Source: a virus. From it: a stretch of 64,000 nt of DNA. The stretch lies in the IMG/VR virus record IMGVR_UViG_3300045988_144650; one strand, 5' to 3'. The notes below the pieces were generated by a model. That model made no database searches and was not told the origin of the DNA. It saw only the letters and a program-made list of their open reading frames with translations. This document shows positions 3,601-44,426 of the stretch, one piece after another (positions within the stretch are counted from its first letter, which is position 1; every line of letters begins with the position of its first letter). The position numbers and the translations under genes were made by a program.

Positions 3601-4554
3601 CTACCTTGTAAACGCCGCTTTCCAACACTCGTAGTCGTCTTCAAGATCACGACGAATACCGTTGGCAAGCTTATTCCTGGTGTAGTTACGGTGGTACTGG
3701 TGGTCTGTTTTACCCATGCGCTCAACAATGAATGCGTCGAAATTCACTGGCTCTCCAAACCTTTCCATCTCATAGGTCTTATAGAAGAGGCCAGACAGAC
3801 GGATTTTACCATACGATGTTTCAATACCTTCGGCCTTAAACTTCTTACCAATGACTGCCCTTATGGTAGTGAGCTTGATCTGAGCGGAACGAATTCCTCT
3901 CAAAAGATGCTCGCCCGGATACCTGTTACGATACCCACCCTGCTTACCATCAGTATAGTTTGGGTTAACATAGCGAAACTCTGTAGCGTTGCAGGCCATC
4001 TTAAAGGCAGGAACTGCTTCACGATAGATCTCATAAGACTTTCCGCCATGTTCAATCGTCATGGTGTCAAAGTCTACTTCATCGACTGTTACCTCAATCG
4101 CTTCTGCTTCTTCAATGCCTGCAAAACCCATCCAGAGATAACATCTGTATAGACAGTCTACTGTTTCGCTTGCTACCGGTTCAAAGATCTTATTGAGTAT
4201 GGCTTCGAGATGGATTGGAGAAGCTATCATCATGCGTTTCATCTTCTCGTCCATCTCAGTTTTCAGCTCATACACATCGCTACAGGTAGGATAACCTTGT
4301 TCTTTGCACCAGCCGACATACGATCTCAAAAAGGCTATGGTTGAGTCCGTCGTTCTTGTACGGGAGCCAAACTTCGCATTAGCAATAGGCTGTAGGATGT
4401 CCACAGTAAGTTCGCAGAGATCCTTTTCCTCTTTCTGCTCATAGGGCTCTATGGTGTTGAACACAGACTTGCCAAAGTCTACTGAACTTCTCATTTCGGT
4501 CAAAAACCGCATCTTTCGCTCTTCGTTATACATGGGAACCTCCTTACGCAGCAC
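3601..4554 (-). CDS. Hypothetical protein, possibly a degenerate tyrosine-recombinase-like fold.
   Basis: 317 aa with HLLRGIR (HxLR-like) and a late Y (NYTRNK). The box-I Arg is not evident, so the resemblance is weak. Confidence 0.35.
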   Translation of the reverse strand: MLRKEVPMYNEERKMRFLTEMRSSVDFGKSVFNTIEPYEQKEEKDLCELTVDILQPIANAKFGSRTRTTDSTIAFLRSYVGWCKEQGYPTCSDVYELKTEMDEKMKRMMIASPIHLEAILNKIFEPVASETVDCLYRCYLWMGFAGIEEAEAIEVTVDEVDFDTMTIEHGGKSYEIYREAVPAFKMACNATEFRYVNPNYTDGKQGGYRNRYPGEHLLRGIRSAQIKLTTIRAVIGKKFKAEGIETSYGKIRLSGLFYKTYEMERFGEPVNFDAFIVERMGKTDHQYHRNYTRNKLANGIRRDLEDDYECWKAAFTR

Positions 4555-4978
4555 AACAGTTCAGCCGGACGGCTGCCTGCCATACCTCCAGCAGATCGCT
4601 CTCGTTCAGAAACGAGATAGCTGCTGTGGCAAGCAAGTTCGCTGCTGCGATTTTCTTCATATACTCGTCGGGAAGTCTTGTCAGAAACTTTCCGATCCTC
4701 GCCTTAGACATTTTTTCGGGGTTCTCACACAAAACCATGCTGTCTCTCCGCAGACCGGTGTCTGCAGCGAGCACGACCACATGGGTCGGCTGGTTTGTTT
4801 TCTTGATAGAGCTGGTGAGTGGAAGTGCAATCACATTAGGGCTGTGTGCATTACCGACATTATTCTGAAACACCACGCCAGGTCTCCATCCGCTTTGCTC
4901 GTTCCCGCTACCCTCAAACTTCATCAGGTAGACATCTCCGATCACCGGAGCCATACTACTCTGCCGATTCTCGCTCAT
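4544..4978 (-). CDS. MazF/PemK-family endoribonuclease toxin.
   Basis: GDVYLMKF...GWRPGVVFQNN...VIALPLTSS...THVVVL...GLRRDSMVLCE matches the MazF/PemK fold signature. Confidence 0.7.
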   Translation of the reverse strand: MSENRQSSMAPVIGDVYLMKFEGSGNEQSGWRPGVVFQNNVGNAHSPNVIALPLTSSIKKTNQPTHVVVLAADTGLRRDSMVLCENPEKMSKARIGKFLTRLPDEYMKKIAAANLLATAAISFLNESDLLEVWQAAVRLNCCAA

Positions 4979-5699: not shown

Positions 5700-6494
5700 A
5701 TGAATTTTAGTGAAAACTTAAAGAGCATCCGAAGCGATGCCGGAATGACACAGAAATCCCTTGGCGAGAAGATCGGCGTTACTTCGGTCACTATCGGGAA
5801 CTGGGAGCGTGGCGTCCGGCAGCCTTCGTTTGAGCTGCTTCCCAAACTCGCAGACGCTCTTGATACAAGCGTTGATGCGTTGCTTGGAAAACATAGAACC
5901 GCCAGGAGGAACCTTGCGGAAGAGGAACTATTAGCAAACTACAGACAACTTGACGCACACGGTCAAAAACTTGTTCGTATCATATGCAACACAGAACTTG
6001 AACGGTTAAAGCCGCGCAAACCAGATGTTATTCGGTTCCCAGAGAAGAAACAGGAGAGAAAGGTCGCCAGAAAACACAATCGATACATCCCGTTTTACCT
6101 TACACCACCCGCAGCGGGCATTGCTGTTCCGCTTGAGGGCGATGAATTTGAGATGCTTCTGGCTGACGACTCTGTGCCGACAGATGCAGACTATGCCGTT
6201 TGCATTTCTGGCGACAGTATGGAACCTTATATCCATGACGGAGAAATGGTGTTTGTTAAAGAGACGCAGGAATTATACGATGGTGATGTCGGTATTTTCT
6301 GTGTAGATGGCGCAATGTATTGCAAACAATACTATGTTGACGAAGAGAGAAACCTACACTTGCTGTCTGCAAACCCAAACAGGATAAACGCAAACATCTA
6401 TGTAGATGGCGAAAGCGGGTCTTCTGTTAAATGCTGTGGCAAGGTTTTGCTTGGTAAGACAATACCGTTGCCTGATTATTTTGAAGAAGATTAA
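5700..6494 (+). CDS. CI/LexA-like phage repressor with an N-terminal XRE HTH and a C-terminal S24 peptidase domain.
   Basis: HTH reads QKSLGEKIGVTSVTIGNWERG. The S24 catalytic Ser motif GDSMEP and a downstream Lys are present. It is transcribed divergently from the flanking minus-strand operons. Confidence 0.85.
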   Translation: MNFSENLKSIRSDAGMTQKSLGEKIGVTSVTIGNWERGVRQPSFELLPKLADALDTSVDALLGKHRTARRNLAEEELLANYRQLDAHGQKLVRIICNTELERLKPRKPDVIRFPEKKQERKVARKHNRYIPFYLTPPAAGIAVPLEGDEFEMLLADDSVPTDADYAVCISGDSMEPYIHDGEMVFVKETQELYDGDVGIFCVDGAMYCKQYYVDEERNLHLLSANPNRINANIYVDGESGSSVKCCGKVLLGKTIPLPDYFEED

Positions 6495-8937: not shown

Positions 8938-10080
8938 TTATCTCCTTTGCAGCTTCTTCACTGAATCTGCGATGACATGAGCTGCCTCGCAAATCTCCTC
9001 GTTCGTTGTAAACACAGAAAATGAAACACGGATTGAACTTCTCGCCTCATCGTCTGACAAACCAATCGCAGTCAACACATGGCTTGGAACTGCAGAATGG
9101 GCAGAACAGGCAGAGCCGGCAGATACAAAAATTCCTTTATTGTTGAGTAGAAGGAGCAAAGTTTCCCCATCCACTCCATCAAAGAAAAGATTGACTGTTT
9201 TTGAACCATCATGGGGGCAACCGTTAATCTGAACCTCACCCAGTTCTTTGGTGAGTTCACTCAAGAAAAGCTTACGCTTGTCTGCATTCTTCTGTTTGCT
9301 TGTAGGATCTTCGAATGCGGCCTCGGCAGCTTCTCCCATGCCGACAATAGACGGAACATTTTCCGTTCCAGACCGAAGCGTCTGCTCCTGACCTCCGCCA
9401 AGAATGATTGGTCGAAGAAGTTCTTTGTGTTTTGCGTATAAAAAACCCACGCCCTTTGGAGCGTGGAACTTATGACCGGAGACTGAAAGAAAATCGATAT
9501 GATCCCTTTCCACATCAATATCCATATTGCCATATGCCTGGACACAATCTGTATGGAAGAAGATGCCATACTTCTTACACTTTGCTCCGATCCTCTGGAT
9601 GTCATAGGAATTTCCCGTTTCATTGTTGACTGCCATCACGGACACAAGACCGGTATTTTTCCTAATCTTCCTGGTGAGTTCGGCAGTATCCAATTCACCG
9701 TCTTTACCCATAGCCAAATACTCGACTTCAAAACCACTATAAAACAGGTATTTCATAGCCTCCAAAACGGAAGGATGCTCTACCGGAGTGGTAATCACAT
9801 GAGTCTTGCCAATGGAAATAAGGTGTTTTGCCAAACCCACGATTGCCAGTGTGTTTGCTTCTGACCCACCAGAAGTGAAGATAATATCTTCTGGGTCAGC
9901 ATTGATTGGCCTTGCACACTGTTCCCTTGCTTTCTGCATTGCTTTTGCCGCATCTGCTCCCATCGTGTGAATACTTCCTGCATTACCATACATTTCTGTG
10001 AAGTACGGAAGCATAGCATTTACCACTCGCTGAGAGACCTGTGTGGTTGCGGCATTATCCAAATAGATCATGGGAACCAC
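8938..10080 (-). CDS. Cysteine desulfurase (NifS/IscS-like class V aminotransferase).
   Basis: N-terminal YLDNAATT, the PLP lysine motif SGHKF and an active-site Cys in SAGSACS. Confidence 0.85.
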   Translation of the reverse strand: MVPMIYLDNAATTQVSQRVVNAMLPYFTEMYGNAGSIHTMGADAAKAMQKAREQCARPINADPEDIIFTSGGSEANTLAIVGLAKHLISIGKTHVITTPVEHPSVLEAMKYLFYSGFEVEYLAMGKDGELDTAELTRKIRKNTGLVSVMAVNNETGNSYDIQRIGAKCKKYGIFFHTDCVQAYGNMDIDVERDHIDFLSVSGHKFHAPKGVGFLYAKHKELLRPIILGGGQEQTLRSGTENVPSIVGMGEAAEAAFEDPTSKQKNADKRKLFLSELTKELGEVQINGCPHDGSKTVNLFFDGVDGETLLLLLNNKGIFVSAGSACSAHSAVPSHVLTAIGLSDDEARSSIRVSFSVFTTNEEICEAAHVIADSVKKLQRR

Positions 10081-11824: not shown

Positions 11825-12343
11825 TTACACTACGATTCCGGGGTCGTGATCGCAAGCATCTCTGCACGACCATTCTCTTTCGTTGCCAAAACTCATCACA
11901 CACTTGTAATGCTCTGACGCCAGATTATCAATGAGACAGTCGTTGCTCAGAACTGCAGCTTTGCTCGTTCCTCTTTCCTCAAAATATGTATCATCCTGGT
12001 TGGTGAGATAGGAAATAATATCATGTTCCGCTTCATCTCTCGAAAAGCCGAAACCCTTTCCGTAGAACTCACGAAGAGAACTGATGCGCTCCAGAACATA
12101 GGTCGTATTTGCCGTTTCAATGGAAAGAATTTTGCCGCCATCGGATTCACACCAGTCAACAACCGTTGAAGTGTGAAGGCGATGGAATCTTCCCATATCG
12201 TATTCTGGTTCAAACTTGATAAAACCGCGCTGACCCTTTTCAAGGGCAATGATATAACAGCGGCGACCAAGAACATCGTAATGAATTTCTTTCATCACAC
12301 CATCCTTGGGCTTTACCTCTTTGAAAATATAATCGTTACACAT
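11825..12343 (-). CDS. Hypothetical protein.
   Basis: 172-aa ORF. Confidence 0.4.
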   Translation of the reverse strand: MCNDYIFKEVKPKDGVMKEIHYDVLGRRCYIIALEKGQRGFIKFEPEYDMGRFHRLHTSTVVDWCESDGGKILSIETANTTYVLERISSLREFYGKGFGFSRDEAEHDIISYLTNQDDTYFEERGTSKAAVLSNDCLIDNLASEHYKCVMSFGNEREWSCRDACDHDPGIVV

Positions 12344-12355
12344 CTGGGCACCTCC

Positions 12356-12796
12356 TTAGCCGCATCCAACCACATACAGATCATTGTTGATAATCTTCTT
12401 GATCTCCTCTTCGGTCATATCAGTAATCTTCTGCACTGCTTTGATGATACGGTCAATGACCTCCTGCTCACTCTGAGGTTCGTTGCTGGTATGGTGCCAC
12501 GGCATGGAAGGCGGGTAGTAAAAATATGCACCGCCGTCTCCATCGTCACCAAAGGTGAGGGAATCTGTCTCGTCACAATGACACAGGACATCGGCAAGAC
12601 TTTCAAAACCGTTGCCGTAGTAATATTCTTCGATGTCAAAAGAAGAATAGTCATTGGCGGCGATCATATCTGCCAGATCGGACTCCTCAGGGAGCTGTTC
12701 AAGAAAAAACCGAACAGCCTTTTCTTTGTTGATATGCGGCGCCACATCGTCTGCGTTGAGACCAACGCCCTCAATCATCCAATAACTCATGCTCAT
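12356..12796 (-). CDS. Hypothetical acidic protein.
   Basis: 146-aa ORF. Confidence 0.4.
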   Translation of the reverse strand: MSMSYWMIEGVGLNADDVAPHINKEKAVRFFLEQLPEESDLADMIAANDYSSFDIEEYYYGNGFESLADVLCHCDETDSLTFGDDGDGGAYFYYPPSMPWHHTSNEPQSEQEVIDRIIKAVQKITDMTEEEIKKIINNDLYVVGCG

Positions 12797-12811
12797 TTTG
12801 AAAGCCCTCCT

Positions 12812-13414
12812 TTAGTGTTCATTGAAGACTACCTGTTCACCTTTCTTCAAAGTCCAGCAACCGCCGCTGACAGATGCACACTCAGTACAGTTGCCAGCAC
12901 ATTCCACCGCACCATCTCTGGCAGTTGTGGAACCATCGCGATAGCGCACATGAGCTTCGGGTAAAGAAAAAGGGTTGATCATTTCAAGACCAACCCATCC
13001 GCTGAACACGATATGCAGATTTTTAGGAAGCTCGCCGTGAGCCACTATGTATTCGTTTACGATCTCAAACTTCTTGGTAAAGCAGAGAATGTCGCAATGT
13101 TTCTGGCGTATTGCTACCTCAACCATTTTATCGAAGTAGTCCTTATTCGGAATGTCGCCGGATACATGAAAGCGGAAGTATCGTGACAACATGATCGTTG
13201 CCTCAACCTCCCGCCAATAAATATCAGGTGCCTCAATCAGCACCTGAAGATTGTTTTTATATGCTTGTGCTACTGTCCTTCGGATCTTTTCCAGCTTTCT
13301 GGCGTAACATTTCTGCTGACAGTCACAGGCTCTGCAGGTCACTACAGCCGGGAGCGATACGCTCTGAATCGCACCCATCTTAGAGTTGCCCTTACTGATG
13401 CTTACTACTCCCAT
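12812..13414 (-). CDS. Cys-rich hypothetical protein.
   Basis: N-terminal SKGNSKMG...TCRACDCQQKCYA and C-terminal CAGNCTECAS Cys clusters. Confidence 0.4.
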   Translation of the reverse strand: MGVVSISKGNSKMGAIQSVSLPAVVTCRACDCQQKCYARKLEKIRRTVAQAYKNNLQVLIEAPDIYWREVEATIMLSRYFRFHVSGDIPNKDYFDKMVEVAIRQKHCDILCFTKKFEIVNEYIVAHGELPKNLHIVFSGWVGLEMINPFSLPEAHVRYRDGSTTARDGAVECAGNCTECASVSGGCWTLKKGEQVVFNEH

Positions 13415-13668
13415 CTACTTCACCTCGCTTATCGTCAAGATGGAAATGCTTTTTGATAATCTCCATCATCTCGTCGTCTTCAATGTAAAAAGGGTCTTCT
13501 GTCAGTACATTCATAATCAACTGGCCGAATCTCCAATCTGGGCACTGGCCTTCCCAGATGTCGGCGAGCTGATTGCAAAACTTACGAATACGCTTAGGAT
13601 CTCTCACGGGGCTACCTCCTCTCAGGTGTAAAAAGCTTTGATATAAACCTATTAAAAGGTGCAAGTTA

Positions 13669-14529
13669 TCACAGCCACCGCTCAACATAGTCGCGGTCTT
13701 GTGTGAAAATCGGAGGCTCCTTGTCGATAATCCATTTGCGTCTGGAAACCGTGATGGTCTTACCGGGATTTTTCGGGTCAGGCATATTGGTTTCCTCAGC
13801 TTGCCTATAGCAGCAAGAACCTCTCTTGCAATCCACGGGGAAATCGTTCCAGTTGATACCATGTACCTGCCACAGCATCTCCTGAATCATGTTTGTGGTC
13901 TTCTTATGAAGCTGATTAGCGCTGAAATACGCTTGTCCAACAGCCTCAATACTGTTCCTGGTGGCATCCTGCTGTCGCCAAATCAAGCAGTTGCAAACTT
14001 CATCTTTGGGAACTGAGAATGCACGAGAATCAAAAAGAGCACCCTTATTCAGCGCCCTCTTCAAAGTTTCTGCGTATTTGTTCAGTTCCTTTTTGATCTC
14101 AGGATCTTCGCCATACATACCACTCAGTACATCTTCCCGATTAAAATAATCATCAATGTTCTGATAGAGCGCCTTGTTAAAAGCCAGGGTTGCCAGCGAT
14201 GCTGAGATGCTGCACATCTTCTGGAGGTTATATCCAAACCACGCATCGGTTGTGATGGTCGCGTAGTCCGTCAAAACCAAAGTGATTTCGTCAGACTGTG
14301 TGTAGCCAAATACACAACCCTGAATATTGGCGCAGAGACTTTGCATGGTCTGTTGCATGGTTTTCATCAAGATAGAATCAAAAGGCTTTTTCATGCCCTT
14401 TGTAAAGGTGTGAAACGCCTTGCCGTCAATGCGGATCACAACTGGGACTCTGCGTGTCAGATAGCTACGAGAAATATTTTCATAGCTCTCTTTCATACGG
14501 TCACCCAAAGAGTCCTTCTTATTGCTCAT
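13669..14529 (-). CDS. Thg1-like protein (tRNA-His guanylyltransferase / 3'-5' polymerase family).
   Basis: VVIRIDGKAFHTFTKGMKKPFD...YTQSDEITLVL matches the Thg1 catalytic core (RIDGRxFHxF...KPxD...QSDEIS). Confidence 0.7.
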   Translation of the reverse strand: MSNKKDSLGDRMKESYENISRSYLTRRVPVVIRIDGKAFHTFTKGMKKPFDSILMKTMQQTMQSLCANIQGCVFGYTQSDEITLVLTDYATITTDAWFGYNLQKMCSISASLATLAFNKALYQNIDDYFNREDVLSGMYGEDPEIKKELNKYAETLKRALNKGALFDSRAFSVPKDEVCNCLIWRQQDATRNSIEAVGQAYFSANQLHKKTTNMIQEMLWQVHGINWNDFPVDCKRGSCCYRQAEETNMPDPKNPGKTITVSRRKWIIDKEPPIFTQDRDYVERWL

Positions 14530-15871
14530 CGCTGCACCATCCTTTCATAATCAAATGTTTAATGATTGCGGGGCGCTCGTTTTCAAGGTTACCACTGATG
14601 ACAGCATCAAGAACCTCGTTTAGAATTCGCCCAACATCTTTACCCTCTTTTACATCGCAGAGGTTCATAATGTCATACCCGTCAATGACCAGATCCTTCA
14701 GCTTAAAACATTGGTTCTGCTCAATGATTTCGCTTGCCATCATGCCAAGAGCGACACATCTGTCAATGCGAGACTCTTGCGTATCTTTTCTGTGAGCCAG
14801 AATATCTGCCATGCGAATATCAAGTAGCCGCATGAACTGCTTTTCACCGACTTTATTGAGCCATCTACGAACTGTTTTGGGGGTAGGCTCAATAACTGCA
14901 TCGTGATACAGCACCAGTTCAAGAATGTCGTCTCGCGATTTGTTATCAAAACGAAGTCTTGTTAGGACTTTTTCTGCAAGGTCATGGCTGAAAACCCCGT
15001 GACCGTAGAAGTGCCCACCATTGTGATCTTCTGTATAACAGCATGGTTTACCAATGTCGTGAAGCAGAAGTGATACATTTACCACCGGATCTGTGGCGTC
15101 GTAGTTTGCAACCGCATGAGCAATATGATCGTAAATCGTAAACTCATGGAATCTGTTGTTCTGGTCAAACCCAATGCAAGGCTTAAGTTCGGGGATAATC
15201 GTTGCCATCACATCGCTATATTCGAGCAGGATATTAAGAATACCCTTGCCGGCCAGCATCTTGCATAGTTCTGACTGGATGCGCTCTGCAGCAATGTTCA
15301 TCAACCTATCTTTGTTTTGGTGGATGGATCTTGCTGTTTCTTCAGCAATAGAAAAACCATAGACAGATGCAAATCGCATTGCTCTGAGGATACGCAGCGC
15401 ATCCTCTCCAAACCTATCGTCTGGATTTCCAACACAAGAAATCATGCCGCGTTCCAAATCTTCTTTGCCACCAAAAGGATCAATCAGGCCATTGTGGTTG
15501 TATGCCATTGCGTTAATGGTGAAGTCTCTGCGAGCCAGATCTTCGACCACATCCGTTACGAATCTTACGGTATCGGGGTGGCGGTTGTCTGAGTATTCAC
15601 CATCCACTCGGAATGTAGTGACCTCATACTGTCCATCGTCCATTACAATGGTTACAGTGCCGTGCTTCAGCCCTGTTTCGATCACACGCTTGTCACAAAA
15701 ACTGTATAGAATTTGTGACGGAGAAGCAGATGTACACACATCCCAATCCTTAGGCTCGACGCCAAGCAGACTGTCTCTTACACAGCCACCAACCACATAT
15801 GCGTCATATCCTGCCTGCTGTAGAGTATGGATAATAACTTGGGCGCCATGAGGAATATTGATATTACTCAT
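14519..15871 (-). CDS. cca: CCA-adding enzyme (class II tRNA nucleotidyltransferase with HD domain).
   Basis: GGCVRDSLLG...DWD head motif, RDFTINAMA, RILRAMRF and a downstream HD motif LLLHDIGK. Confidence 0.85.
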   Translation of the reverse strand: MSNINIPHGAQVIIHTLQQAGYDAYVVGGCVRDSLLGVEPKDWDVCTSASPSQILYSFCDKRVIETGLKHGTVTIVMDDGQYEVTTFRVDGEYSDNRHPDTVRFVTDVVEDLARRDFTINAMAYNHNGLIDPFGGKEDLERGMISCVGNPDDRFGEDALRILRAMRFASVYGFSIAEETARSIHQNKDRLMNIAAERIQSELCKMLAGKGILNILLEYSDVMATIIPELKPCIGFDQNNRFHEFTIYDHIAHAVANYDATDPVVNVSLLLHDIGKPCCYTEDHNGGHFYGHGVFSHDLAEKVLTRLRFDNKSRDDILELVLYHDAVIEPTPKTVRRWLNKVGEKQFMRLLDIRMADILAHRKDTQESRIDRCVALGMMASEIIEQNQCFKLKDLVIDGYDIMNLCDVKEGKDVGRILNEVLDAVISGNLENERPAIIKHLIMKGWCSDEQ

Positions 15872-16886
15872 TGATCGCCCTCCTGTTCACTTCCACCACG
15901 AACTCTTCAACGCGCTTCATATTAGGTGTTACCGGCAGGTCAGTGTTTTCCTTGGCGTACTTCAAACGCTTCTCGTAGTCGTTCACCAAGTCAAAGAATT
16001 CCTGTCTATATGAACCGTCTTCTCTCTGGAATTTGCCATTACGAATACTCAGTAAAAACTCCCGATCTCCGTAACGGTAGGTGTTGATCTCACCCTTTTC
16101 CAGAATGTCAAGGCACATCATGTACAGACGGATCAGGTGCATGGCGTGCTTGTTGAGATGGTTGTCGTCCTTTTTACGATTTCGATGATTCAGCTTTTCA
16201 TAGTTGCCAATGACATTGGAAAGCGTATTTATCATCACGCTGAAATCTCTTGCGGGGAATTTGTCGATGTGAATGTTGCAAAAGACCTCTCGATCCAAAT
16301 CATCGCGTGGACTTTCATCTGTGAACAGGGTAATGCCGCCACTATCCATCACAGAATAGCGGTCTGCAAAAGCCTTGAAAGAACGCTCCATTGCGCTTCG
16401 AATGTGTTCTTCGGTATCCGCCTGACACATTTTGTCTCTTGCCAGAGCATTCTGCAAACGGCGTAGTTGCTGCGTTGCATACCCGCCAAAAGAATTAACT
16501 GCTTTCTGAGAAAGGAAGAGATCGCGGTTGTCAATCATCATCTGTCCAGCGTCAGAGATGTAAAAATAATGCTCTGGCTTGCAGCCGAGCATCTCAATGG
16601 TGTTAGGGTTGCAGTTAAGCAAAAGACCAATCAGTTTATTAAACCCGTAGATCGTGGTATCAGTCTGCGTGTGTACGACCTGCTCAAAATTCGTGAGGCC
16701 GAGGATATCGCTTTTGCTGTTCATCGCACACCCTCGAATATCAACATCTGAGGTTTCGATGTTCGTGCCGTAGGCGTAACTACCGCCCAGCGTCAGAAAC
16801 ATGATGCGACCTTTGAGATGTGGGTTGGTTCGCAGAAAATCATATTCTTCGCTTGCCATCATCTCTTTGATTTGTTCAATCGTCAT
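15864..16886 (-). CDS. Pol-beta superfamily nucleotidyltransferase, RNA-repair-associated type.
   Basis: GGSYAYGTNIETSDVDIRG is the GS...D.D nucleotidyltransferase signature. The gene is co-operonic with the CCA enzyme and the Thg1-like gene. Confidence 0.55.
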   Translation of the reverse strand: MTIEQIKEMMASEEYDFLRTNPHLKGRIMFLTLGGSYAYGTNIETSDVDIRGCAMNSKSDILGLTNFEQVVHTQTDTTIYGFNKLIGLLLNCNPNTIEMLGCKPEHYFYISDAGQMMIDNRDLFLSQKAVNSFGGYATQQLRRLQNALARDKMCQADTEEHIRSAMERSFKAFADRYSVMDSGGITLFTDESPRDDLDREVFCNIHIDKFPARDFSVMINTLSNVIGNYEKLNHRNRKKDDNHLNKHAMHLIRLYMMCLDILEKGEINTYRYGDREFLLSIRNGKFQREDGSYRQEFFDLVNDYEKRLKYAKENTDLPVTPNMKRVEEFVVEVNRRAINE

Positions 16887-17422
16887 ACGCTCCTCCTTCC
16901 TTGGTATGTTTCGTATAATGCTCTCTGCGGCGCATACTCACCAAAGAGTTCAATCTCTTTTGAGAGCCTTGCCTTGACAGCATCTTCTTTGAATTTGTAT
17001 CTCCCTATGTAAACGCGCTTGCCGTTGTATGAGATATTAGCAAGCCACATTCCGCGTTCCTTATCGTAGAAAACGCCCGTCACGCCGGAAGTGTTGGTGG
17101 AATAAAGACCACGGTTGCGGTCGTTCTCTGTAAACGCACAGCGTCTCAGATTGCGCTTGCGGTTATCTTTTCTATTCTTGTCGATATGGTCAACTATCTC
17201 TCCGGGCTTAGCGTGCATCACAATCCTGTGGAATCTGGAGACCTGATATCGACCGAAATAGTAATAGCCGCATACGAGGTATCCATCCTTATCGGGATAC
17301 CAGTTGCGGCTTTGGATCATATGTAGATCTTCAAGATCAAACAGATATTCAGATGCCCCAATGTGAAGAATGCCATGAGTTGGAAGAAGCTCAATTCGCT
17401 TCTGGGCGGCTTTCATCTCCAC
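16883..17422 (-). CDS. HNH homing endonuclease with an AP2 DNA-binding domain.
   Basis: HNH motif in HRIVMHAKPGEIVDHIDKNRKDNRKRNLR. AP2-like segment SGVTGVFYDKERGMWLANISYNGKRVYIGRYKFKEDA. Confidence 0.7.
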   Translation of the reverse strand: MEMKAAQKRIELLPTHGILHIGASEYLFDLEDLHMIQSRNWYPDKDGYLVCGYYYFGRYQVSRFHRIVMHAKPGEIVDHIDKNRKDNRKRNLRRCAFTENDRNRGLYSTNTSGVTGVFYDKERGMWLANISYNGKRVYIGRYKFKEDAVKARLSKEIELFGEYAPQRALYETYQGRRSV

Positions 17423-17706
17423 TTACCGTCAAAACTCTCTCCGGTTGAGTAGCCATCCGCATCATAGTAGTTGACACGAACCCAGCCGTTTTCCTGCTCA
17501 GTTTTCAAAACCATGCCGGTTTTAGAAACAGACAGATACACGGTTTCGCCGTCGGAGTTTTCTCCTGTAAACATAGTATCGCTGTCAGCGTACTGCTGAA
17601 TAATTTCCTTTCGTCCTTCTACCGTATCAAAACGGCAGGACAACTCATTTGGGATCTTCATACTTATTGCCCTCCCTTGTATCCAGTGTGCCGTGCAACC
17701 ACTCAC
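17413..17706 (-). CDS. Hypothetical protein.
   Basis: 97-aa ORF. Confidence 0.3.
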   Translation of the reverse strand: MSGCTAHWIQGRAISMKIPNELSCRFDTVEGRKEIIQQYADSDTMFTGENSDGETVYLSVSKTGMVLKTEQENGWVRVNYYDADGYSTGESFDGKWR

Positions 17707-17926
17707 TATGCGTCCAGTACACTAAATAGTTTTCGTTTTCGTACTCAAACCTTACGACCTCTTCGTCAAGGCTATAATAATCTCCATCGAGAGAGATTAG
17801 CTTTTCACCGTCCCATTGACAATACCCAAAAAGAATGCCGTCTTCACACTCGTCAAACGGATCGTTGGTTCTTGCCATAATGGTTTCAACCGGTTTGCCT
17901 TTGGTGAGAATATCTCGGAGTTTCAT
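17645..17926 (-). CDS. Hypothetical protein.
   Basis: 93-aa ORF. Confidence 0.3.
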   Translation of the reverse strand: MKLRDILTKGKPVETIMARTNDPFDECEDGILFGYCQWDGEKLISLDGDYYSLDEEVVRFEYENENYLVYWTHSEWLHGTLDTREGNKYEDPK

Positions 17927-17950
17927 GGTTAATCCACCTCAATATTGACA

Positions 17951-18535
17951 TCAGCAGATCCAATGAATAACCATATCTTCGCCATCGTCATTGGTACGAA
18001 CTCCCGACGGATGGCTGTCGATAAAGTCAATCAGATCTTCAATATCCGCAAACGGCACAGCATCCAGGTCGTACTTGCAGACCGCAAGATCTTCGAGCTG
18101 AAGATCTTCTTCGTCGCAATATTCCTCAAAATATTCTTCGGGCATATCAAACCACGCGACATCAAACTTGAAAGTTCCAGACCCAAGGTCGATGGTAACA
18201 CGACCTTCTTCCCACTTTCTGGTCTCCTCTTTTCCGTTTTCGGTTACTGAGATCAAACCATTGTTGCGATTAGTACAGTCCTTGAATTCAAAGCTGCCGA
18301 ATTTTTCCGGCTGTTTCTGAATTTCAGCTCGTTCAGTCTCGTTGACACCACCACCGGTTGCCTCCAGAAGCTCAATCGCCATCTTCAAACCAACGATTGC
18401 CTCAGAATCGTAGTAGGAATCAATGATATGCTTAGTAAGATTAAGAGCGGAACCCGTATAGGCAGACCAGTGATAGTAACAGTTTGCCAACGAGGTTTCG
18501 CCGTTTACGATCTCAATATTCAATCTCTGACCCAT
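17951..18535 (-). CDS. Hypothetical protein.
   Basis: 194-aa ORF. Confidence 0.4.
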   Translation of the reverse strand: MGQRLNIEIVNGETSLANCYYHWSAYTGSALNLTKHIIDSYYDSEAIVGLKMAIELLEATGGGVNETERAEIQKQPEKFGSFEFKDCTNRNNGLISVTENGKEETRKWEEGRVTIDLGSGTFKFDVAWFDMPEEYFEEYCDEEDLQLEDLAVCKYDLDAVPFADIEDLIDFIDSHPSGVRTNDDGEDMVIHWIC

Positions 18536-18553
18536 AGGGCACCCTCCTATCTT

Positions 18554-19090
18554 TTATCCGAAGAAGTATCGCTGCGGGACGCTTTCTTCTCCGTTATTTT
18601 CTTGAGTAGACCAAGCAGAACCGCATTTTCTACAGCTATAAAGCCGCTCCGTAAAACCGGAAAGCGACTCGTCAGATCCAATCACACATTCGCACATGAT
18701 TGGAAAACCACATTCGGGGCACACCTTGTCCCTTGCCCAGTTCACAAGGAACATCATTTCTTCATGGACACCACCGTGGTAACCAAGAACAAAATCTGCA
18801 GTTGGATAAGCATCGGTATATTCGTCGAAGTCTTTTGTTCCGCTGTTGCAGTAGTACCACTCGCCCTGGAAGCAGTTGGGAAGCGCCTCGAAAAATTGAT
18901 CGTGATCTCCATTCACCTCTTCGTAAATCTGGAGAATTCTTTCCTTATCCACGACCTCAATTTCCCATGAACCGTTCCCATCGTTTGCCTGCTCGTTGAG
19001 GTAGATGATGTACGCCTGCCAATCACAGCCATGTATCTTTCCGGGAAGAAATACGGCATCTATACCGTCTTGAATTTCGATTTTTCTCAT
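18554..19090 (-). CDS. Hypothetical protein with a C-terminal zinc ribbon.
   Basis: CPECG...CRKCG Cys pairs. Confidence 0.4.
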   Translation of the reverse strand: MRKIEIQDGIDAVFLPGKIHGCDWQAYIIYLNEQANDGNGSWEIEVVDKERILQIYEEVNGDHDQFFEALPNCFQGEWYYCNSGTKDFDEYTDAYPTADFVLGYHGGVHEEMMFLVNWARDKVCPECGFPIMCECVIGSDESLSGFTERLYSCRKCGSAWSTQENNGEESVPQRYFFG

Positions 19091-19099
19091 ATTTCCTCC

Positions 19100-19321
19100 T
19101 TAGTGGCGGTATATATCCGACCATTCCGTTTTGCTCCAGTCGATTCTCTGACCACACTCTTTGCAGAACTTATCCGTATGAGTTGACCAATCGTCCTCGC
19201 CATTGCCAGTAATAATAAAACCACCAACCTCGGCGCCGCAAACTGGGCATCCAAAGTAATGGTGGTGAACCGCATTGCTTCCTGCATTGCATAAGACAGG
19301 AGACAAACCATTATTCGCCAT
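19100..19321 (-). CDS. Small zinc-ribbon protein.
   Basis: CPVCG...CKECG Cys pairs. Confidence 0.35.
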   Translation of the reverse strand: MANNGLSPVLCNAGSNAVHHHYFGCPVCGAEVGGFIITGNGEDDWSTHTDKFCKECGQRIDWSKTEWSDIYRH

Positions 19322-19334
19322 GTCGCTTTACTCC

Positions 19335-19763
19335 TTATCTCAGGTTTTCAGGCTCCAAAGGCATGGTATCGCCAGAAGCAACGCAATCTACAATAAGATC
19401 TACAAACTCACTGTCCTCACAAAACTGGAGACGCGTAATCAGTTCTCTTGCATGAGCTGCAAGAAACTGCTTTTCCTGGATTGTCATATTGCTTTCACTC
19501 CTTTGATTCGTATTTCTTAAATGATGGTAATAAGCTACATGACCACAGTCAGGACAGACAATCTGATATACCCCAAGTTCCTTAACCTTTGGAAAGTACA
19601 GTGTGTATCCACACGGACAGAAGACTGCATCATACCCATCTTTTACAAGTATGGAATGCTCCATTACAATGTCCTCAACATCTACTCTGTATTCTCTAAT
19701 GGAATCAACACCTCTGAACCATTTCAAAACCGGAATCTCTTCTTGGATTGGTTTAGGGAACAT
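19335..19763 (-). CDS. Hypothetical protein.
   Basis: 142-aa ORF with a CPDCG motif. Confidence 0.4.
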   Translation of the reverse strand: MFPKPIQEEIPVLKWFRGVDSIREYRVDVEDIVMEHSILVKDGYDAVFCPCGYTLYFPKVKELGVYQIVCPDCGHVAYYHHLRNTNQRSESNMTIQEKQFLAAHARELITRLQFCEDSEFVDLIVDCVASGDTMPLEPENLR

Positions 19764-24244: not shown

Positions 24245-25183
24245 TTACTCCTCCTTTGCCTTTAAGAATTGGAACATCTCCGTGATGTTGTTGGTGACGG
24301 GGAAACGCTCTGTGCTACAAGAGTTTCTTGCAAATTGGCCGGAAACTGCATCCACATACATAGAAGCAGAACTCAACTCGCCCTCTCTGCCATCGTCTCC
24401 CATATAGAAAATCTTCCACTCTTCTTCAGACATCAGTCGCTTGACATCAAGCTGAGAAATCGCCAGATTGTCAAAACTTATGGTCTTGAACCAACCGTTT
24501 TTGATAATCTGCGGAAGATATTCATACATATCATGCATTTTGTTGTCGACGATCTGACCAACCTTCATATGGTGGTCAGCGCCGCGTCGGAAATCCTTAT
24601 ATCCAAGGATCAGGATCTTCAGCTCACGGTTGCGTTCCGAAAGCCAAGACACCTGTTCCATACTAACAATGCCGTTGATGATGTGAATAACAGCATTGGG
24701 AAACTTGGAAACTTCATCCGCAAAACGGTAAGTGCTTTCGCGATCTCCGCCGGTATAAGAAATTCCCAAGCCATAAATAAACCCTTGCTCCATCAGTTCG
24801 AGAAGCAAGGGAATGTTTTTCAGAAAATGAACTTCGTTGACCGTCACATTTGCTATCAGCTTGCGCTTCTTCAGCAAATGCAGAAACGGGATAAAATCTG
24901 GGTGCGAGAGCGGGTTGCCGCCGCCAATCGCCAGTTCCGTAAACTCGTGGAGAGAGTCAAGAAACGGCAGGTTGAGGATATCACCGTGCTTGCCATCCGG
25001 CCTGGAATCCTCATGGCACATAGGACAACCCTTATCGCAAGCGTTGGTGATTTTGATATCCATCGACTCAGGGAACTCGGCATCAAAGAAGTCCAGATCG
25101 TTTTCTCGGATCTTGGTGCCGTCGGAGAGTATCGTCACGCTATAGTTTCCATTTTGATATTGACCCAAGATACTCATACACAA
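24245..25183 (-). CDS. Radical SAM enzyme, small, with no SPASM domain.
   Basis: CDKGCPMC is a Cx3Cx2C cluster. GGGNP glycine-rich SAM motif present. Confidence 0.7.
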   Translation of the reverse strand: MCMSILGQYQNGNYSVTILSDGTKIRENDLDFFDAEFPESMDIKITNACDKGCPMCHEDSRPDGKHGDILNLPFLDSLHEFTELAIGGGNPLSHPDFIPFLHLLKKRKLIANVTVNEVHFLKNIPLLLELMEQGFIYGLGISYTGGDRESTYRFADEVSKFPNAVIHIINGIVSMEQVSWLSERNRELKILILGYKDFRRGADHHMKVGQIVDNKMHDMYEYLPQIIKNGWFKTISFDNLAISQLDVKRLMSEEEWKIFYMGDDGREGELSSASMYVDAVSGQFARNSCSTERFPVTNNITEMFQFLKAKEE

Positions 25184-25491: not shown

Positions 25492-26700
25492 CTACCTCTC
25501 TTCTTCGCCGGCTTTGAAATTATAGATCGGCTTAATAACCGAAATAATCTTTGCCGTCGGCTCAATATTGTCGACAATGTCTTCCATATTCTTGTATGCC
25601 ATAGGGCACTCATCAAGAGTGCTTTGACCTACAGATGTCGTATAAATTCCACTCATCTGCTTTTTGAACTCAGAAACTGTAAATGTCTGCTTTGCCGCAC
25701 TTCTGCTCATCAATCGACCTGCTCCATGAGGTGCAGAATAGTTCCAATCTTCATTACCCTTACCAATACAGATTAGACTTCCATCTCTCATGTTGATCGG
25801 GATCAGAAGTTTTTCTTCGTTCTGTGCAGAAACAGCTCCCTTTCGCAGAATCATATTATCCAAATCAATATAGTTATGAATTGTTGTAAATTGTTCAACA
25901 ACATGGAACCCCATGTTCTTTACAATAATATCCATCATAGCTTGCCTATTTAATTCGGCAAACTGCTGTGCAATTTGCATATCGTGCAAATATTGCTCGA
26001 ACAACTCACCCTCTACATAGGCTAATGCTTTAGGGATGGATGACTGCTTAGTCTTCATCTGTTTCAAAACGGTTTGAATTTCCTTTTGGCGACCGTCTTT
26101 TTTTAATCTCTGGACAACCTCATCAATTTCATCTTTACTGTATGAGGTTAATGATTTATAAGCAGCATCCTGATAATAATTAGCTATTTCCAACCCAAGA
26201 TGTCTGCTTCCAGAATGGACGACAATATAAATATTTCCATCATCGTCTTTATTTGCTTCAATAAAATGATTACCACCACCGAGTGTTCCGATGCTGTTAT
26301 AGGCGCGATCGGTATTAACTTTGTCTGCACAAAACAGTTTTGACAAATCGATACGATCAGAAAACTTATGTGGTCTCTTATGAATTTCAAACCCAGATGG
26401 AATACTTGATCGAATTACCTTGTCCAACTTTTGTGGTTCAATATGTGTCTCTTTCAGCCGGATGGTTTCCATTCCGCATCCAATATCAACCCCTACAAGA
26501 TTGGGGCATATCTTGTCCTTGATAGTCATTGTGGTTCCAATTGTACACCCTGCACCAGCATGAATGTCGGGCATCATTCGAACTCTGCTTCCCTCCATAT
26601 AGGGTTGATTCAGCAAATTTATCACCTGAGAGATAGATTCGTTGTCGACCACATCAGTAAATACTTTTGCAATGCCGTATTTTCCGCTCAACTCAAACAT
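25492..26700 (-). CDS. rtcB: RtcB-family RNA ligase (3'-phosphate/5'-OH).
   Basis: DIHAGAGCTIG, GGGNHF and HGAGR motifs. Confidence 0.85.
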   Translation of the reverse strand: MFELSGKYGIAKVFTDVVDNESISQVINLLNQPYMEGSRVRMMPDIHAGAGCTIGTTMTIKDKICPNLVGVDIGCGMETIRLKETHIEPQKLDKVIRSSIPSGFEIHKRPHKFSDRIDLSKLFCADKVNTDRAYNSIGTLGGGNHFIEANKDDDGNIYIVVHSGSRHLGLEIANYYQDAAYKSLTSYSKDEIDEVVQRLKKDGRQKEIQTVLKQMKTKQSSIPKALAYVEGELFEQYLHDMQIAQQFAELNRQAMMDIIVKNMGFHVVEQFTTIHNYIDLDNMILRKGAVSAQNEEKLLIPINMRDGSLICIGKGNEDWNYSAPHGAGRLMSRSAAKQTFTVSEFKKQMSGIYTTSVGQSTLDECPMAYKNMEDIVDNIEPTAKIISVIKPIYNFKAGEEER

Positions 26701-28482: not shown

Positions 28483-28569
28483 TGGTACGGATAGTGGGAC
28501 TTGAACCCACACATCATTGCTGACATTAGCACCTGAAGCTAACGCGTCTGCCAATTCCGCCATATCCGC
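28483..28569 (-). tRNA. tRNA-Leu (anticodon CAG), type II, CCA encoded.
   Basis: Manual fold: acceptor GCGGATA, anticodon loop TTCAGGT, long variable arm, T-arm GTGGG-TTCAAGT-CCCAC, 3' ACCA. Confidence 0.7.
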
Positions 28570-28742
28570 ATATTTCTTTGGTCGGCTTCCCGCTTAGATT
28601 GTCACATCGTCTACTTGGGAGTAAAGGTCTCGTTCGCAAACAACCGTGTATACCCGATTGCTCCGCAGTTTTCAGCGGACATTTTCATTCTCTGTGTGGT
28701 AAGCCGATAATCGCACACATCATCTGGGAGCTACCCAGCCAC

Positions 28743-28833
28743 TGGCGGAGCAGATAGGACTTGAACCTACACACCCTTTCGGGCTACTCACGGTTTAGCA
28801 AACCGCTGCCTTACCAATTAGGCTTACTGCTCC
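28743..28833 (-). tRNA. tRNA-Ser (anticodon GCU), type II.
   Basis: Acceptor GGAGCAG, anticodon loop TTGCTAA, long variable arm, T-loop TTCAAGT, 3' GCCA. Confidence 0.7.
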
Positions 28834-28837
28834 ATAT

Positions 28838-28913
28838 TGGAGCTGGTGGACGGATTCGAACCCCCGACCTACTGATTACAAATCAGTTGCTCTACCGACT
28901 GAGCTACACCAGC
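28838..28913 (-). tRNA. tRNA-Thr (anticodon UGU).
   Basis: Canonical D-arm AGCTCAGTCGGTAGAGC, anticodon loop TTTGTAA, T-arm GGGGG-TTCGAAT-CCGTC, 3' TCCA. Confidence 0.8.
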
Positions 28914-29527
28914 ATCTCTTTATAGGGTTTTTCGCGCTTCTGCAGATTTCCACGCCTTGTCCTTACCGTCTATCCCTATTGCCACATGGGATCACAGACC
29001 CTAAACACTTCTGCTCTATGCCGGTTGTGTTCTGATACCGGAAAACATTCTGGGGACTTTATTTCACCTTGTTGCTCCAGCCCTCAAGGGTAACTCGGCA
29101 AGTGGCTTGCCTATTTGGATTTTGGTGCCATCATCTCAGCCATACACTCCGGCCTAAACCTAAGTTTGCCAGAACCTCACCGATTGCTCCTATGTATGCC
29201 GTCCTCGCCTCTGACTGAAATGATGTGCCGACACCTTCCATACCGTCTCACTTGCAAAATAAAACAAACTACGAACGGGGTGTGGTAAGCACATACCACC
29301 CAAACCTCTGCTTAGTCCCGCCGGTTCTGGTTTACGACATGGTTTGGTGCTCATGCCCTTGAGCTATTAGGCTATTTAACTATCTCTCACCGGCTTGATT
29401 TGCTTTTGTTAAGACGGTGCCAGAGCACGCTGCTCATATCCCGTTATCTTCCGCCCATCGTAGTCGATGACCCAGCCACTATATATCATTTCAAGTGGGC
29501 TTTTCCCATACCGTCTAAAGCGTATGG

Positions 29528-29637
29528 CTGGTGGAGAGGGATGGATTCGAACCACCGAAGCTTAATTGACCACACGGCGCCACAAGTCAAAAAGCGGAGA
29601 TTTACAGTCCCCGACTTTGGCCACTTGTCTACCTCTC
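29528..29637 (-). tRNA. tRNA-Tyr-like (anticodon GUA), atypically long at 110 nt with a ~39-nt variable arm.
   Basis: Acceptor GGAGAGG/CCTCTCC, anticodon stem-loop GGGGA-CTGTAAA-TCTCC, T-arm GGTGG-TTCGAAT-CCATC, 3' ACCA. The variable region GCTTTTTGACTTGTGGCGCCGTGTGGTCAATTAAGCTTC forms an extended hairpin. Confidence 0.55.
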
Positions 29638-29655
29638 CATATTGGTAAACTGGTC

Positions 29656-30468
29656 TTATTCCCAGTTTGTCGTAACACGACCATCTGGATGAATAATAAT
29701 ATTGGAATACCCATCCTGATAATCATTATGTTGCTGTTGCCACATATCTCCGAGTGTTACCCTGGCGTGCTTGCCAGCATAATCAAAAGTTGCATACACA
29801 AAGAAGTCGCCAATACGAAATGTGTGAAGATCAACTTCGTGATCGTTTTGTAATTCATTCCAAATATCTACCGAGTAGTCTTTTCGTTCAAGGCCACTAA
29901 GAAACCGAAAAGAAAAGGCATCTGCATCCATCTTCATGTAATCTTTAATGAATGCCAATGTTGGGGTTTCAACCACTGTTTGGACTGTACACCCAGGAAA
30001 CTTACTTGGATTTGGATGAATAAACTCGTTACAGGACAGATTGATATGTGCCAAACCATTTAATTCTGTGCTGAAACCAGAAGTATTTATTGAGCAAAAG
30101 ACACCGTTGCTGTAACTCTGATATGTTTCAACGATTTTTGCAATGTGTTTTGGATATAGACCGGGTTCTCCGCCAGTGATAGTAAGCCTTCCATTCGGAT
30201 GTTCTTTTAACACACGCTTTAGCGCCTCAACCTGGAGCGGAAAATTATTGTTGCCGGACATTGGGTGCTGCCTTTCCAAGCAAAACGGACAGCTAAACGG
30301 ACATTCCTGTGTGGTAATCAGTTGGATATTGATTCGATAGTAAAGAGGCCGACCAAGTGATGTTTTGATTAACCTGTCTCTTAGCCTATATTGCAGATCA
30401 TTATTCATTTCATTCCTTATTTCGTCGTAAGAACCAATGAACGGAATGAAGTTCAACTTGCTACTCAT
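29656..30468 (-). CDS. Radical SAM enzyme, second copy, small.
   Basis: CPFSCPFC is a Cx3Cx2C cluster. ITGGEPGLYP SAM-binding motif present. Confidence 0.7.
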   Translation of the reverse strand: MSSKLNFIPFIGSYDEIRNEMNNDLQYRLRDRLIKTSLGRPLYYRINIQLITTQECPFSCPFCLERQHPMSGNNNFPLQVEALKRVLKEHPNGRLTITGGEPGLYPKHIAKIVETYQSYSNGVFCSINTSGFSTELNGLAHINLSCNEFIHPNPSKFPGCTVQTVVETPTLAFIKDYMKMDADAFSFRFLSGLERKDYSVDIWNELQNDHEVDLHTFRIGDFFVYATFDYAGKHARVTLGDMWQQQHNDYQDGYSNIIIHPDGRVTTNWE

Positions 30469-30493
30469 CTAAATCAACCTCCTTTGCTGTTAG

Positions 30494-30569
30494 TGGTGGA
30501 GATGGTCGGGATCGAACCGGCGACCTCCTGCTTGCAAGGCAGGCGCTCTCCCAACTGAGCTACATCCCC
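30494..30569 (-). tRNA. tRNA-Ala (anticodon UGC).
   Basis: GGGGATGTAGCTCAGTTGGGAGAGC..., G3:U70 pair, anticodon loop CTTGCAA, T-arm with TTCGATC, 3' ACCA. Confidence 0.8.
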
Positions 30570-44345: not shown

Positions 44346-44426
44346 ACCAGGCGGGAAACCGCCTGACCGTAGAAAGGAAAGGAAGCCGAAAGCCAAAGCA
44401 TTCAGCAAAAGTCGCCATGTGGCGAT

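Follow-up and report, generated by a model that had tools for sequence, protein, structure and literature searches.

Why does a phage keep three different nucleotide-adding enzymes side by side, and do they serve one purpose? The genes in question occupy positions 13,669 to 16,886 of the IMG/VR virus record IMGVR_UViG_3300045988_144650, a stretch of 64,000 nucleotides to which, at its full length, we refer below as the window. They encode an RlaP-family nucleotidyltransferase, a CCA-adding enzyme and a Thg1-like protein (TLP), and a sequence-only reading of this DNA had described them as an operon equipped to repair both ends of tRNA. In this work we have compared the three proteins with known families and structures, and their order with that in related viral loci. 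We think it rather probable that the block consists of co-transcribed, translationally coupled nucleotidyltransferases which jointly rebuild tRNA acceptor ends against nuclease damage. What is conserved is the pair of RlaP and, directly after it, the CCA-adding enzyme, to which the TLP is a movable add-on.

Three nucleotidyltransferases with intact catalytic residues

The three adjacent, co-directional genes with overlapping ends that the sequence-only reading had recognized were confirmed to the nucleotide when the open reading frames of the window were read. All are on the minus strand: RlaP (340 aa) at 15864-16886, the class II CCA-adding tRNA nucleotidyltransferase with a C-terminal HD phosphohydrolase domain (450 aa) at 14519-15871, and the bacterial-type TLP, a 3'-5' nucleotidyltransferase of 286 aa, at 13669-14529. 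The stop of RlaP overlaps the start of the CCA gene by 8 nt (AATGAGTAA) and the stop of the CCA gene overlaps the start of TLP by 11 nt (ATGAGCAATAA), and a Shine-Dalgarno-like sequence (GGAGG, AGGAGG or AAGGA) precedes each start in the block. Promoter-like sites (9 against 11.9 expected from shuffles) and terminator-like sites (10 against 5.7 +/- 2.2) are not convincingly enriched at 12000-19500, and none of either kind lies between the three genes. By a hand calculation, three named genes among about 100 would be contiguous by chance with a probability of about 6/(100x99), roughly 6e-4. More important than this estimate is the recurrence of the linkage in diverged relatives, described below.

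The profile searches kept the 286-aa protein in the Thg1 family, as the sequence-only reading had proposed. It matched Pfam Thg1 (PF04446) at 3.6e-29 (101.8 bits against a cut-off of 29.2, profile positions 3-130 of 130) and phrog_4717 at 9.8e-89, with Thg1C at 22 bits, below its cut-off of 26.3. The closest relative of known structure is the TLP of Bacillus thuringiensis (BtTLP; PDB 4KGK, 1.4e-56), and eukaryotic Thg1 chains follow only at 1e-5 to 4e-7. Over the aligned parts the window protein is 47-50% identical to BtTLP (4KGK/4KGM) and keeps all catalytic and NTP-binding residues. The residues E12, R28, D30, S74, D75 and E76, found to be functionally important in BtTLP (PMC3701042), correspond to E17, R33, D35, S79, D80 and E81, which are invariant in our alignment of eight phage TLPs. 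The HINNLYN motif specific to Thg1 is absent and ATRNSIE stands in its place. Judged by its sequence, the window protein is thus of the bacterial TLP subtype and not of the eukaryotic Thg1 subtype. It differs from BtTLP in being phage-encoded, with an activity that is predicted, and in carrying a 10-residue insertion near residue 250 and another of about 38 residues after residue 125 (residues 126-163), within a region of variable length among gut-phage TLPs. BtTLP is reported to carry out a templated addition of the 5' nucleotides that truncated tRNAs have lost, whatever the identity of the tRNA, and to prefer such 5'-truncated tRNAs 5-160-fold over the addition of G-1; opposite C73 it is also able to add G-1, and it gives weak complementation of a yeast thg1 mutant (PMC3061083). 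Our literature search found no experiments on any phage TLP. Four IMG/VR contigs of sister phages (3300045988_141087, _141938, _145481 and _143463) each have two TLP paralogues, separated by about 40 kb, at the locus pairs L017/L027, L018/L028, L026/L033 and L025/L045; the second copy adjoins a radical-SAM gene, a DNA methylase and a dUTPase, and not RlaP or the CCA gene.

The 450-aa protein is, by its domains and motifs, a class II CCA-adding enzyme, and its specificity for CCA is predicted from profile scores. It matched the PolyA_pol head domain at 3.4e-37, PolyA_pol_RNAbd at 2.2e-11, tRNA_NucTran2_2 at 5.6e-12 and, close to the cut-off of 22, the HD domain (9.5e-05, 23.1 bits). The NCBIfam CCA equivalog NF009814 was matched marginally (293.5 bits against a cut-off of 290) and the 'multifunctional CCA addition/repair' model NF008137 at 4.3e-35 over residues 109-340, while the pcnB and A-adding models stayed far under their cut-offs; phrog_2244 was matched at 2.5e-70. 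The closest structures are those of the Planococcus (6IBP, 4e-59) and Geobacillus (1MIV, 1.9e-55) enzymes, with which it shares the class II head and neck, motifs A-E and a flexible loop that aligns without a gap. The motifs follow the class II patterns (A, GGxVRD..DxD; B, RRD; C; D, EDxxR; E, ER..E..K), and their residues are invariant in six phage enzymes: G28, G29, R32, D33, D42 and D44; R114, R115 and D116; D131, G135 and D138; D157, R160 and R163; E196, R197, E201 and K204. The same is true of the predicted metal ligands of the HD domain (H249, H271-D272, H291, H323 and D356). A domain of this kind with conserved metal ligands is shared with the multifunctional CCA-adding and repair enzyme of the E. 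coli type. The window protein has a Bacillales-like head, although the Bacillales enzymes have no HD domain, and a C-terminal half made up of HD and tRNA_NucTran2_2.

The 340-aa protein matched PF10127, the RlaP family, at 3.4e-15 (56.9 bits against a cut-off of 23) and phrog_388 at 1.2e-53 over its full length. The sequence-only reading had called it a nucleotidyltransferase of the kind found with RNA ligases; the family is the right one, and in the window it has no ligase for a neighbour, such company being found only in relatives. G35-S36, D47-x-D49 and D76 are invariant across seven phage RlaPs, down to 24% identity. The search returned 5,537 representative homologues at E<=1e-3, all 120 RlaP homologues among the matches listed carry PF10127, and RlaP is annotated in 332 phage records. 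A PDB sequence search gave chance matches only. An AlphaFold2 model made from a shallow alignment (24 homologues at 75-99% identity) had a mean pLDDT (predicted local distance difference test score) of 50.6; residues 240-339 were predicted to be helical at pLDDT ~66-82 and the nucleotidyltransferase core was not resolved. The family, with its G-S...DxD...D signature, also includes T4 NrdC.11 and the RlaP of the Pseudomonas RtcB-RlaP-RtcA operon (PfRlaP/PaRlaP; Carruthers, Fatma, Huang 2025 preprint). The crystal structure of PfRlaP has a helical C-terminal domain, which forms an RNA-binding cleft. The window RlaP differs from these Pseudomonas proteins in that its Pfam match is confined to the N-terminal half of the profile (positions 18-141 of 249), and in that its neighbour is a CCA-adding enzyme and not RtcB or RtcA. 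Given an RNA with a 3'-OH, Pseudomonas RlaP attaches one or two nucleoside monophosphates to it, and its preferred substrate is the 5' half of a mimic of cleaved tRNA; the authors themselves point to a puzzle, namely that the 3'-OH product is not a substrate of RtcB (PMC12776372).

Two unusual proteins were seen among the 150 best RlaP representatives. P0167 (419 aa) is a chimera in which RlaP residues 1-239 are joined to CCA-enzyme residues 266-441, the part with the HD domain and the tail; it probably arose by in-frame deletion between the adjacent genes and not as a designed fusion, and it would be a natural hybrid of nucleotidyltransferase and HD domain if functional. In P0234 (649 aa) the C-terminal half could not be identified.

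The conserved RlaP-CCA pair and the movable TLP

To what extent do the three genes travel together? We mapped the window proteins onto about 120 viral loci, 66 of them anchored on TLP and 51 on RlaP. RlaP is followed directly by the CCA gene in 43 of the 48 loci with room downstream, with a gap of -4 to +123 nt by tblastn, and the identity of the CCA enzyme across these loci runs from 98% down to 42%. What stands on either side of the pair differs. An HNH gene is upstream in the lineage of the window and a cysteine desulfurase in the largest sister clade, where the order NifS-RlaP-CCA recurs in about 30 loci. In a more distant clade (L108-L114 and L122, about 5.2-11.1 kb of each locus) the order is NAMPT, Macro, NAD synthase, RlaP, CCA and isochorismatase/nicotinamidase, and the pair lies 4 kb from an array of seven tRNA genes in L108. 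From its gene content, this association of NAD+ salvage with RlaP-CCA looks like a composite counter-defence island. Since the 3'-OH product of RlaP is the substrate of the CCA-adding enzyme, the near-invariant pairing suggests that the two carry out sequential steps.

The position of TLP is far less fixed. Among the 66 TLP loci it is contiguous with the pair in six, five times in the order RlaP-CCA-TLP and once as TLP-RlaP-CCA. In 28 it stands 1-3 kb ahead of the pair, as TLP-x-x-metallophosphoesterase-NifS-RlaP-CCA, and in the remaining 32 neither RlaP nor CCA occurs within the flank, some of these being the second TLP paralogue of the same genome. The three-gene toolkit of the sequence-only reading therefore holds for its RlaP-CCA part and is not indivisible, a point made most directly by locus L071 (ENA ERZ16268208 scaffold_66). 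Its RlaP is 92% identical to that of the window and its order is HNH-RlaP-CCA-GP88, without TLP. When the two nucleotide sequences are aligned, window positions 13520-14532 have no counterpart in L071; they hold TLP and the 5' part of the small open reading frame at 13392-13607. The 3' remnant of this frame survives, so a clean deletion, about 1 kb long, has removed TLP. In another locus, L089, it is most of the CCA gene that has been deleted.

Several relatives also have RNA ligases close by. In L075 (Rnl-x-RlaP-CCA-TLP) and in L106 and L107 (Rnl-RlaP-CCA-HNH-metallophosphoesterase), RlaP is preceded at a distance of 0.7-0.8 kb by an ATP-dependent RNA ligase (Rnl). In L130, from a Lachnospiraceae metagenome-assembled genome (MAG), the order is Rnl-TLP, and in L127, from a Eubacteriales MAG, the order TLP-RtcB continues with a metallophosphoesterase and NifS, and two tRNA genes are 1.7 kb away. 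The RNA ligase of locus L071 is ATP-dependent (PF09414), and the 21 kb read there contain no RtcB; compared with the RtcB of the window, this suggests that the ligase type is swapped within one phage lineage. The company of TLP, with RtcB (L127) or an ATP-dependent ligase (L130 and L075), is consistent with the repair reading. Band_7 proteins occur close to the repair genes in L071 and L075, and the window encodes an SPFH/flotillin protein at 31227-32720 (minus strand).

Proposed repair of tRNA acceptor ends and its alternatives

The window has its own tRNA genes, as the sequence-only reading had noted, and ARAGORN (six) and Rfam (one more) bring their number to seven, all on the minus strand. 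Five form a cluster at 28483-30569, Leu(CAG), Ser(GCT), Thr(TGT), Tyr(GTA) and Ala(TGC), all with an encoded 3' CCA and fully paired acceptor stems. The tRNA-Tyr(GTA) among them (29529-29638, 110 nt, its variable arm unusually long at about 40 nt) is missed by ARAGORN and found by Rfam at 38 bits. A tRNA-Ser(TGA) at 44426-44514 (Rfam 52.9 bits) also encodes CCA. The seventh, at 45549-45621 (50.6 bits), is odd: its anticodon loop has 6 nt (ATATGA), ARAGORN labels it 'Ile|His?', and it encodes no CCA. Possible readings are a pseudogene, a decoy or a tRNA of the frameshift type. CCA is thus encoded in six of the seven genes, and the acceptor stems are paired in all. We considered TLP as a 5' editor of mismatched acceptor stems, in the style of amoebal mitochondria, and rejected this role on account of the seven paired stems; de novo CCA synthesis on the phage tRNAs was largely rejected as a role of the CCA-adding enzyme, given the six encoded CCA ends. 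Four of the seven (Leu, Ser, Ser and Tyr) are class II tRNAs.

How could the enzymes of the block act on a damaged tRNA? From their families, residues and linkage we infer their substrates and an order of action, together with an activity of the HD domain and a role in counter-defence. The HD domain of the CCA-adding enzyme would strip the 2',3'-cyclic or 3'-phosphate left by a nuclease and so produce a 3'-OH. On a 3'-OH trimmed past the CCA, RlaP would then put one or two untemplated nucleotides, for example the discriminator, and the CCA-adding enzyme would rebuild C74-C75-A76. Where TLP is present, it would refill the 5' nucleotides of the acceptor stem with the 3' strand as template, and may thus be an optional 5'-end extension of the RlaP-CCA core kit. 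Internal breaks would be dealt with separately, by RtcB or, in the sister phages, by Rnl. The likeliest purpose would be to keep host and phage tRNAs chargeable under host defences, competitor toxins and stress nucleases.

Is it possible that no attack has to be answered at all, and that the enzymes process, CCA-tail and quality-control the phage's own tRNAs and so boost late translation? Such a housekeeping or maturation role accords with the presence of at least seven phage tRNA genes, one of them without CCA, with the distance of only 2-4 kb between the module and the tRNA arrays in L108 and L127, and with the frequency of CCA enzymes in tRNA-rich phages (510 annotated phage records). However, with CCA encoded in six genes and paired stems in all, neither CCA synthesis nor 5' editing is needed, which favours repair over maturation; CCA enzymes have a repair role in organisms whose tRNA genes encode CCA. 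No maturation role is known for RlaP, and the RNA ligases, phosphoesterases and NAD+ salvage genes beside the pair in relatives point to damage repair or conflict. We therefore regard maturation as unlikely. A role in tRNA-His identity, in which TLP would add G-1 to a phage tRNA-His or act when processing by host RNase P is disturbed, seems to us very improbable. It is suggested by the annotation of the homologues, which are called tRNA-His guanylyltransferase in 161 phage records and likewise in IMG, and by the G-1 addition seen with BtTLP. Neither ARAGORN nor Rfam found a tRNA-His gene in the 64-kb window, however, and the protein has the BtTLP-type sequence and no HINNLYN. The preference of BtTLP for truncated tRNAs over G-1 addition also speaks against this role, as does the fact that a genome-encoded G-1 is normally kept in bacterial tRNA-His.

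Or could the block be a loose collection of accessory genes, gathered next to a homing endonuclease at a hot spot of gain and loss, which act independently and perhaps on RNAs other than tRNA? Simple deletions do remove TLP or CCA in close relatives, the position of TLP varies by lineage, with nearly half of its loci lacking both partners in the flank, and an HNH homing endonuclease abuts the block. In vitro, Pseudomonas RlaP labels rRNA-sized as well as tRNA-sized RNAs (PMC12776372). Yet the adjacency of RlaP and CCA has outlasted a complete change of neighbours (HNH, NifS, NAD synthase) and divergence of the CCA enzyme to 42% identity, and the same three families cluster independently with a ligase and a kinase in a Vibrio phage. 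We find such a loose assembly distinctly unlikely, and joint repair of acceptor ends is still the explanation that we prefer.

Several observations nevertheless weigh against joint repair. Positions 1-47 kb of the window are entirely co-directional and tightly packed, so that adjacency by itself is weak evidence; 'operon' is not specific to the three genes, and their overlapping ends speak for co-expression without singling them out. The deletion of TLP in L071 and the truncation of CCA in L089 mean that none of the genes is essential and leave their joint action unproven. TLP occurs alone in cultured Bacillus, Staphylococcus and Fusobacterium phages, and Bacillus phage Bcp1 has 22 kb between RlaP and TLP. 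To our knowledge, no anti-phage system that removes 5' nucleotides from tRNA has been documented. The retron-Eco7/PtuAB paper gave no cleavage-site detail that bears on acceptor ends. Lastly, Pseudomonas RlaP has little NTP specificity, and the restoration of a specific discriminator would accordingly be inefficient (PMC12776372).

The window also encodes the RNA ligase RtcB (25492-26700, minus strand, Pfam 6.8e-66), which seals 3'-P and 5'-OH ends; its presence was rightly predicted by the sequence-only reading. The suggestion that it works together with the block was not supported. It lies 8.6 kb upstream and is nevertheless the ligase nearest to RlaP, RtcB was never found within +/-8 kb of the trio in the related viral loci, and the end chemistry differs: RtcB needs a 3'-P or cyclic-P and a 5'-OH, RlaP and the CCA-adding enzyme need a 3'-OH and TLP needs a 5'-P. 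No polynucleotide kinase or ATP-dependent RNA ligase was found among the about 75 window open reading frames scanned with Pfam. As to the HD proteins and metallophosphoesterases that were also counted with the toolkit, there is a stand-alone HD protein at 1858-2427; no RNA-type metallophosphoesterase was found in the window, only an SbcD-like DNA exonuclease at 56481-57677 that scored below the Pfam cut-off. In the sister phages a metallophosphoesterase does lie beside the module.

A narrower form of the repair hypothesis is possible, and we put it forward tentatively: RlaP and the HD-fused CCA enzyme may be a dedicated 3'-end pathway, with TLP serving the 5' strand, directed against undescribed defence nucleases of gut Clostridia that attack the acceptor stem. 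In this pathway the HD domain would heal the end and RlaP would put back the discriminator or the final nucleotides of the stem before CCA is added. If true, the physiological partner of phage RlaP would be a CCA-adding enzyme and not a ligase, and the puzzle of its incompatibility with RtcB would be resolved. What Thg1-like proteins do in the physiology of bacteria and phages has been an open question since 2010, and the same question has stood for RlaP since 2016; both are predicted to repair RNA and have in vitro activities on record. Here the conserved pairing suggests a concrete partner for RlaP. The compact, coupled RlaP-CCA(-TLP) cassette in abundant human-gut phages, with the natural knock-outs L071 and L089, makes the repair hypothesis directly testable, and relatives in the cultured hosts Dysosmobacter segnis and Hominicoprocola fusiformis add to this. 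If it is true, attack on tRNA acceptor ends would be a common pressure on gut phages; if it fails, the block would be an ordinary instance of phage accessory genes that have already been annotated.

The phage, its other genes and known repair systems

A large terminase (60184-61926) and a portal protein (61927-63438) identify the element as a phage, and it is probably temperate, as judged from a CI-like HTH-S24 repressor (5700-6494, plus strand) and integrases at 49815-50633 and 57758-58798. No cultured phage gave a megablast match to window positions 13000-17500, and all that is known of the lineage comes from metagenomes and MAGs. The host probably belongs to gut Clostridia of the Oscillospiraceae, since relatives occur in Dysosmobacter segnis, Hominicoprocola fusiformis, Angelakisella and Ruminococcus (Oscillospiraceae and related Clostridia). 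Proteins identical to the CCA enzyme and TLP are deposited from an Alistipes sp. MAG (NCBI MBR6632527.1 and MBR6632528.1) as 'HD domain-containing protein' and 'hypothetical protein'. We rejected Alistipes as a host and consider this a binning artefact because of the strong Shine-Dalgarno sites and the relatives in Oscillospiraceae isolates.

The gene immediately upstream of RlaP resembles HNH/AP2 homing endonucleases (16883-17422, minus strand; Pfam HNH_3 and AP2, phrog_99 1e-35), and its stop shares 4 nt (ATGA) with the start of RlaP. It stands at this place in the window lineage and at other places in other lineages, and is probably a selfish passenger outside the function of the block. Downstream of TLP on the minus strand come the small open reading frame at 13392-13607 (71 aa, a GTG start and a strong Shine-Dalgarno site), without a Pfam match, and GP88 (PF17338, 4.9e-22), a Cys-rich protein at 12812-13414 for which neither the PDB nor the literature search gave a match. 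GP88 adjoins TLP in six arrangements (the window, L005, L060, L064, L076 and L120). A NifS/IscS-like cysteine desulfurase (8938-10080, minus strand; Pfam Aminotran_5, 1.3e-83) lies 3.6 kb downstream of the block. Together with GP88, two radical-SAM proteins (24245-25183 and 29656-30468) and a ThiF-like E1 protein (38481-39158), all on the minus strand, it makes up a sulfur and Fe-S theme which may serve tRNA thiolation or Fe-S supply.

The MazF-like RNase of the sequence-only reading is indeed present, as a MazF/PemK toxin homologue (4544-4978, minus strand, 2.8e-22) for which no antitoxin was identified. A reverse transcriptase (RVT_1, 1.3e-19; 36076-37221) adjoins a DUF6273 protein (37575-38456), both on the minus strand, in an arrangement like that of diversity-generating retroelements; no template and variable repeat pair was detected for them. 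A 21-nt motif, ACTT[CT]GATT[GT]ACAATAC[AG]AAG, occurs four times (none expected) on the plus strand, at 27541, 27777, 35099 and 37516. The motif lies between genes and is in part a palindrome, the repeat reaches 44 nt in two of the copies, and it may be a regulatory site.

How new, then, is the block? In all, the observation made by the sequence-only reading was confirmed and its interpretation partly supported, the function that it assigned being wholly a matter of inference. Its claim that a counter-defence logic was here built from different enzymes is no novelty. In section 3.4.9 of their paper, Iyer, Anantharaman, Krishnan, Burroughs and Aravind (2021, Viruses 13:63; PMC7824862, available in part), building on Burroughs & Aravind 2016, described RlaP, the CCA-adding enzyme and Thg1 as end-restoring nucleotidyltransferases of jumbo phages, in a repertoire that also includes RtcB and Rnl ligases and HD or calcineurin-type phosphatases. 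In their scheme RlaP restores 3' nucleotides, the CCA-adding enzyme CCA, and Thg1 the 5' nucleotides. Earlier still, Anantharaman et al. 2010 had proposed that Thg1 takes part in RNA repair in large DNA viruses, and had noted gene neighbourhoods of Thg1, kinase and ligase. IMG, too, already names the window proteins correctly. The idea of a phage RNA-repair kit is thus published, and the window is a new example of the predicted kind. The components and the logic are the same; here the three nucleotidyltransferases are contiguous and translationally coupled, in gut-Clostridia phages whose contigs measure about 60-230 kb in the relatives, as opposed to jumbo phages. The near-invariant RlaP-CCA pair is not described in the available part of Iyer et al. 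2021, and we found neither this tight pairing nor natural presence/absence variants in the literature covered, which did not include Burroughs & Aravind 2016.

The closest parallels in gene order come from phages of other hosts. Vibrio phage D181 (OZ196140.1, 71.5-81.6 kb) carries CCA..RlaP..TLP..RNA ligase..polynucleotide kinase on one strand within 10 kb, and E. coli phage 4MG (Vequintavirinae) carries CCA..'hydrolase'..RlaP, with CCA and RlaP 2.5 kb apart. In contrast to the block of the window, these genes are interspersed with small open reading frames and a 'hydrolase', their proteins are only 24-35% identical to those of the window, and the kinase and ATP-dependent ligase of D181 have no counterpart there. 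With T4 Pnk/Rnl1 the window has in common the logic of a phage that mends nuclease-damaged tRNA. The T4 enzymes seal a nick in the anticodon loop, whereas the trio would rebuild the termini, and RtcB is found in place of Pnk and Rnl; in its action this RtcB may be analogous to heal-and-seal of the T4 type without being a member of it.

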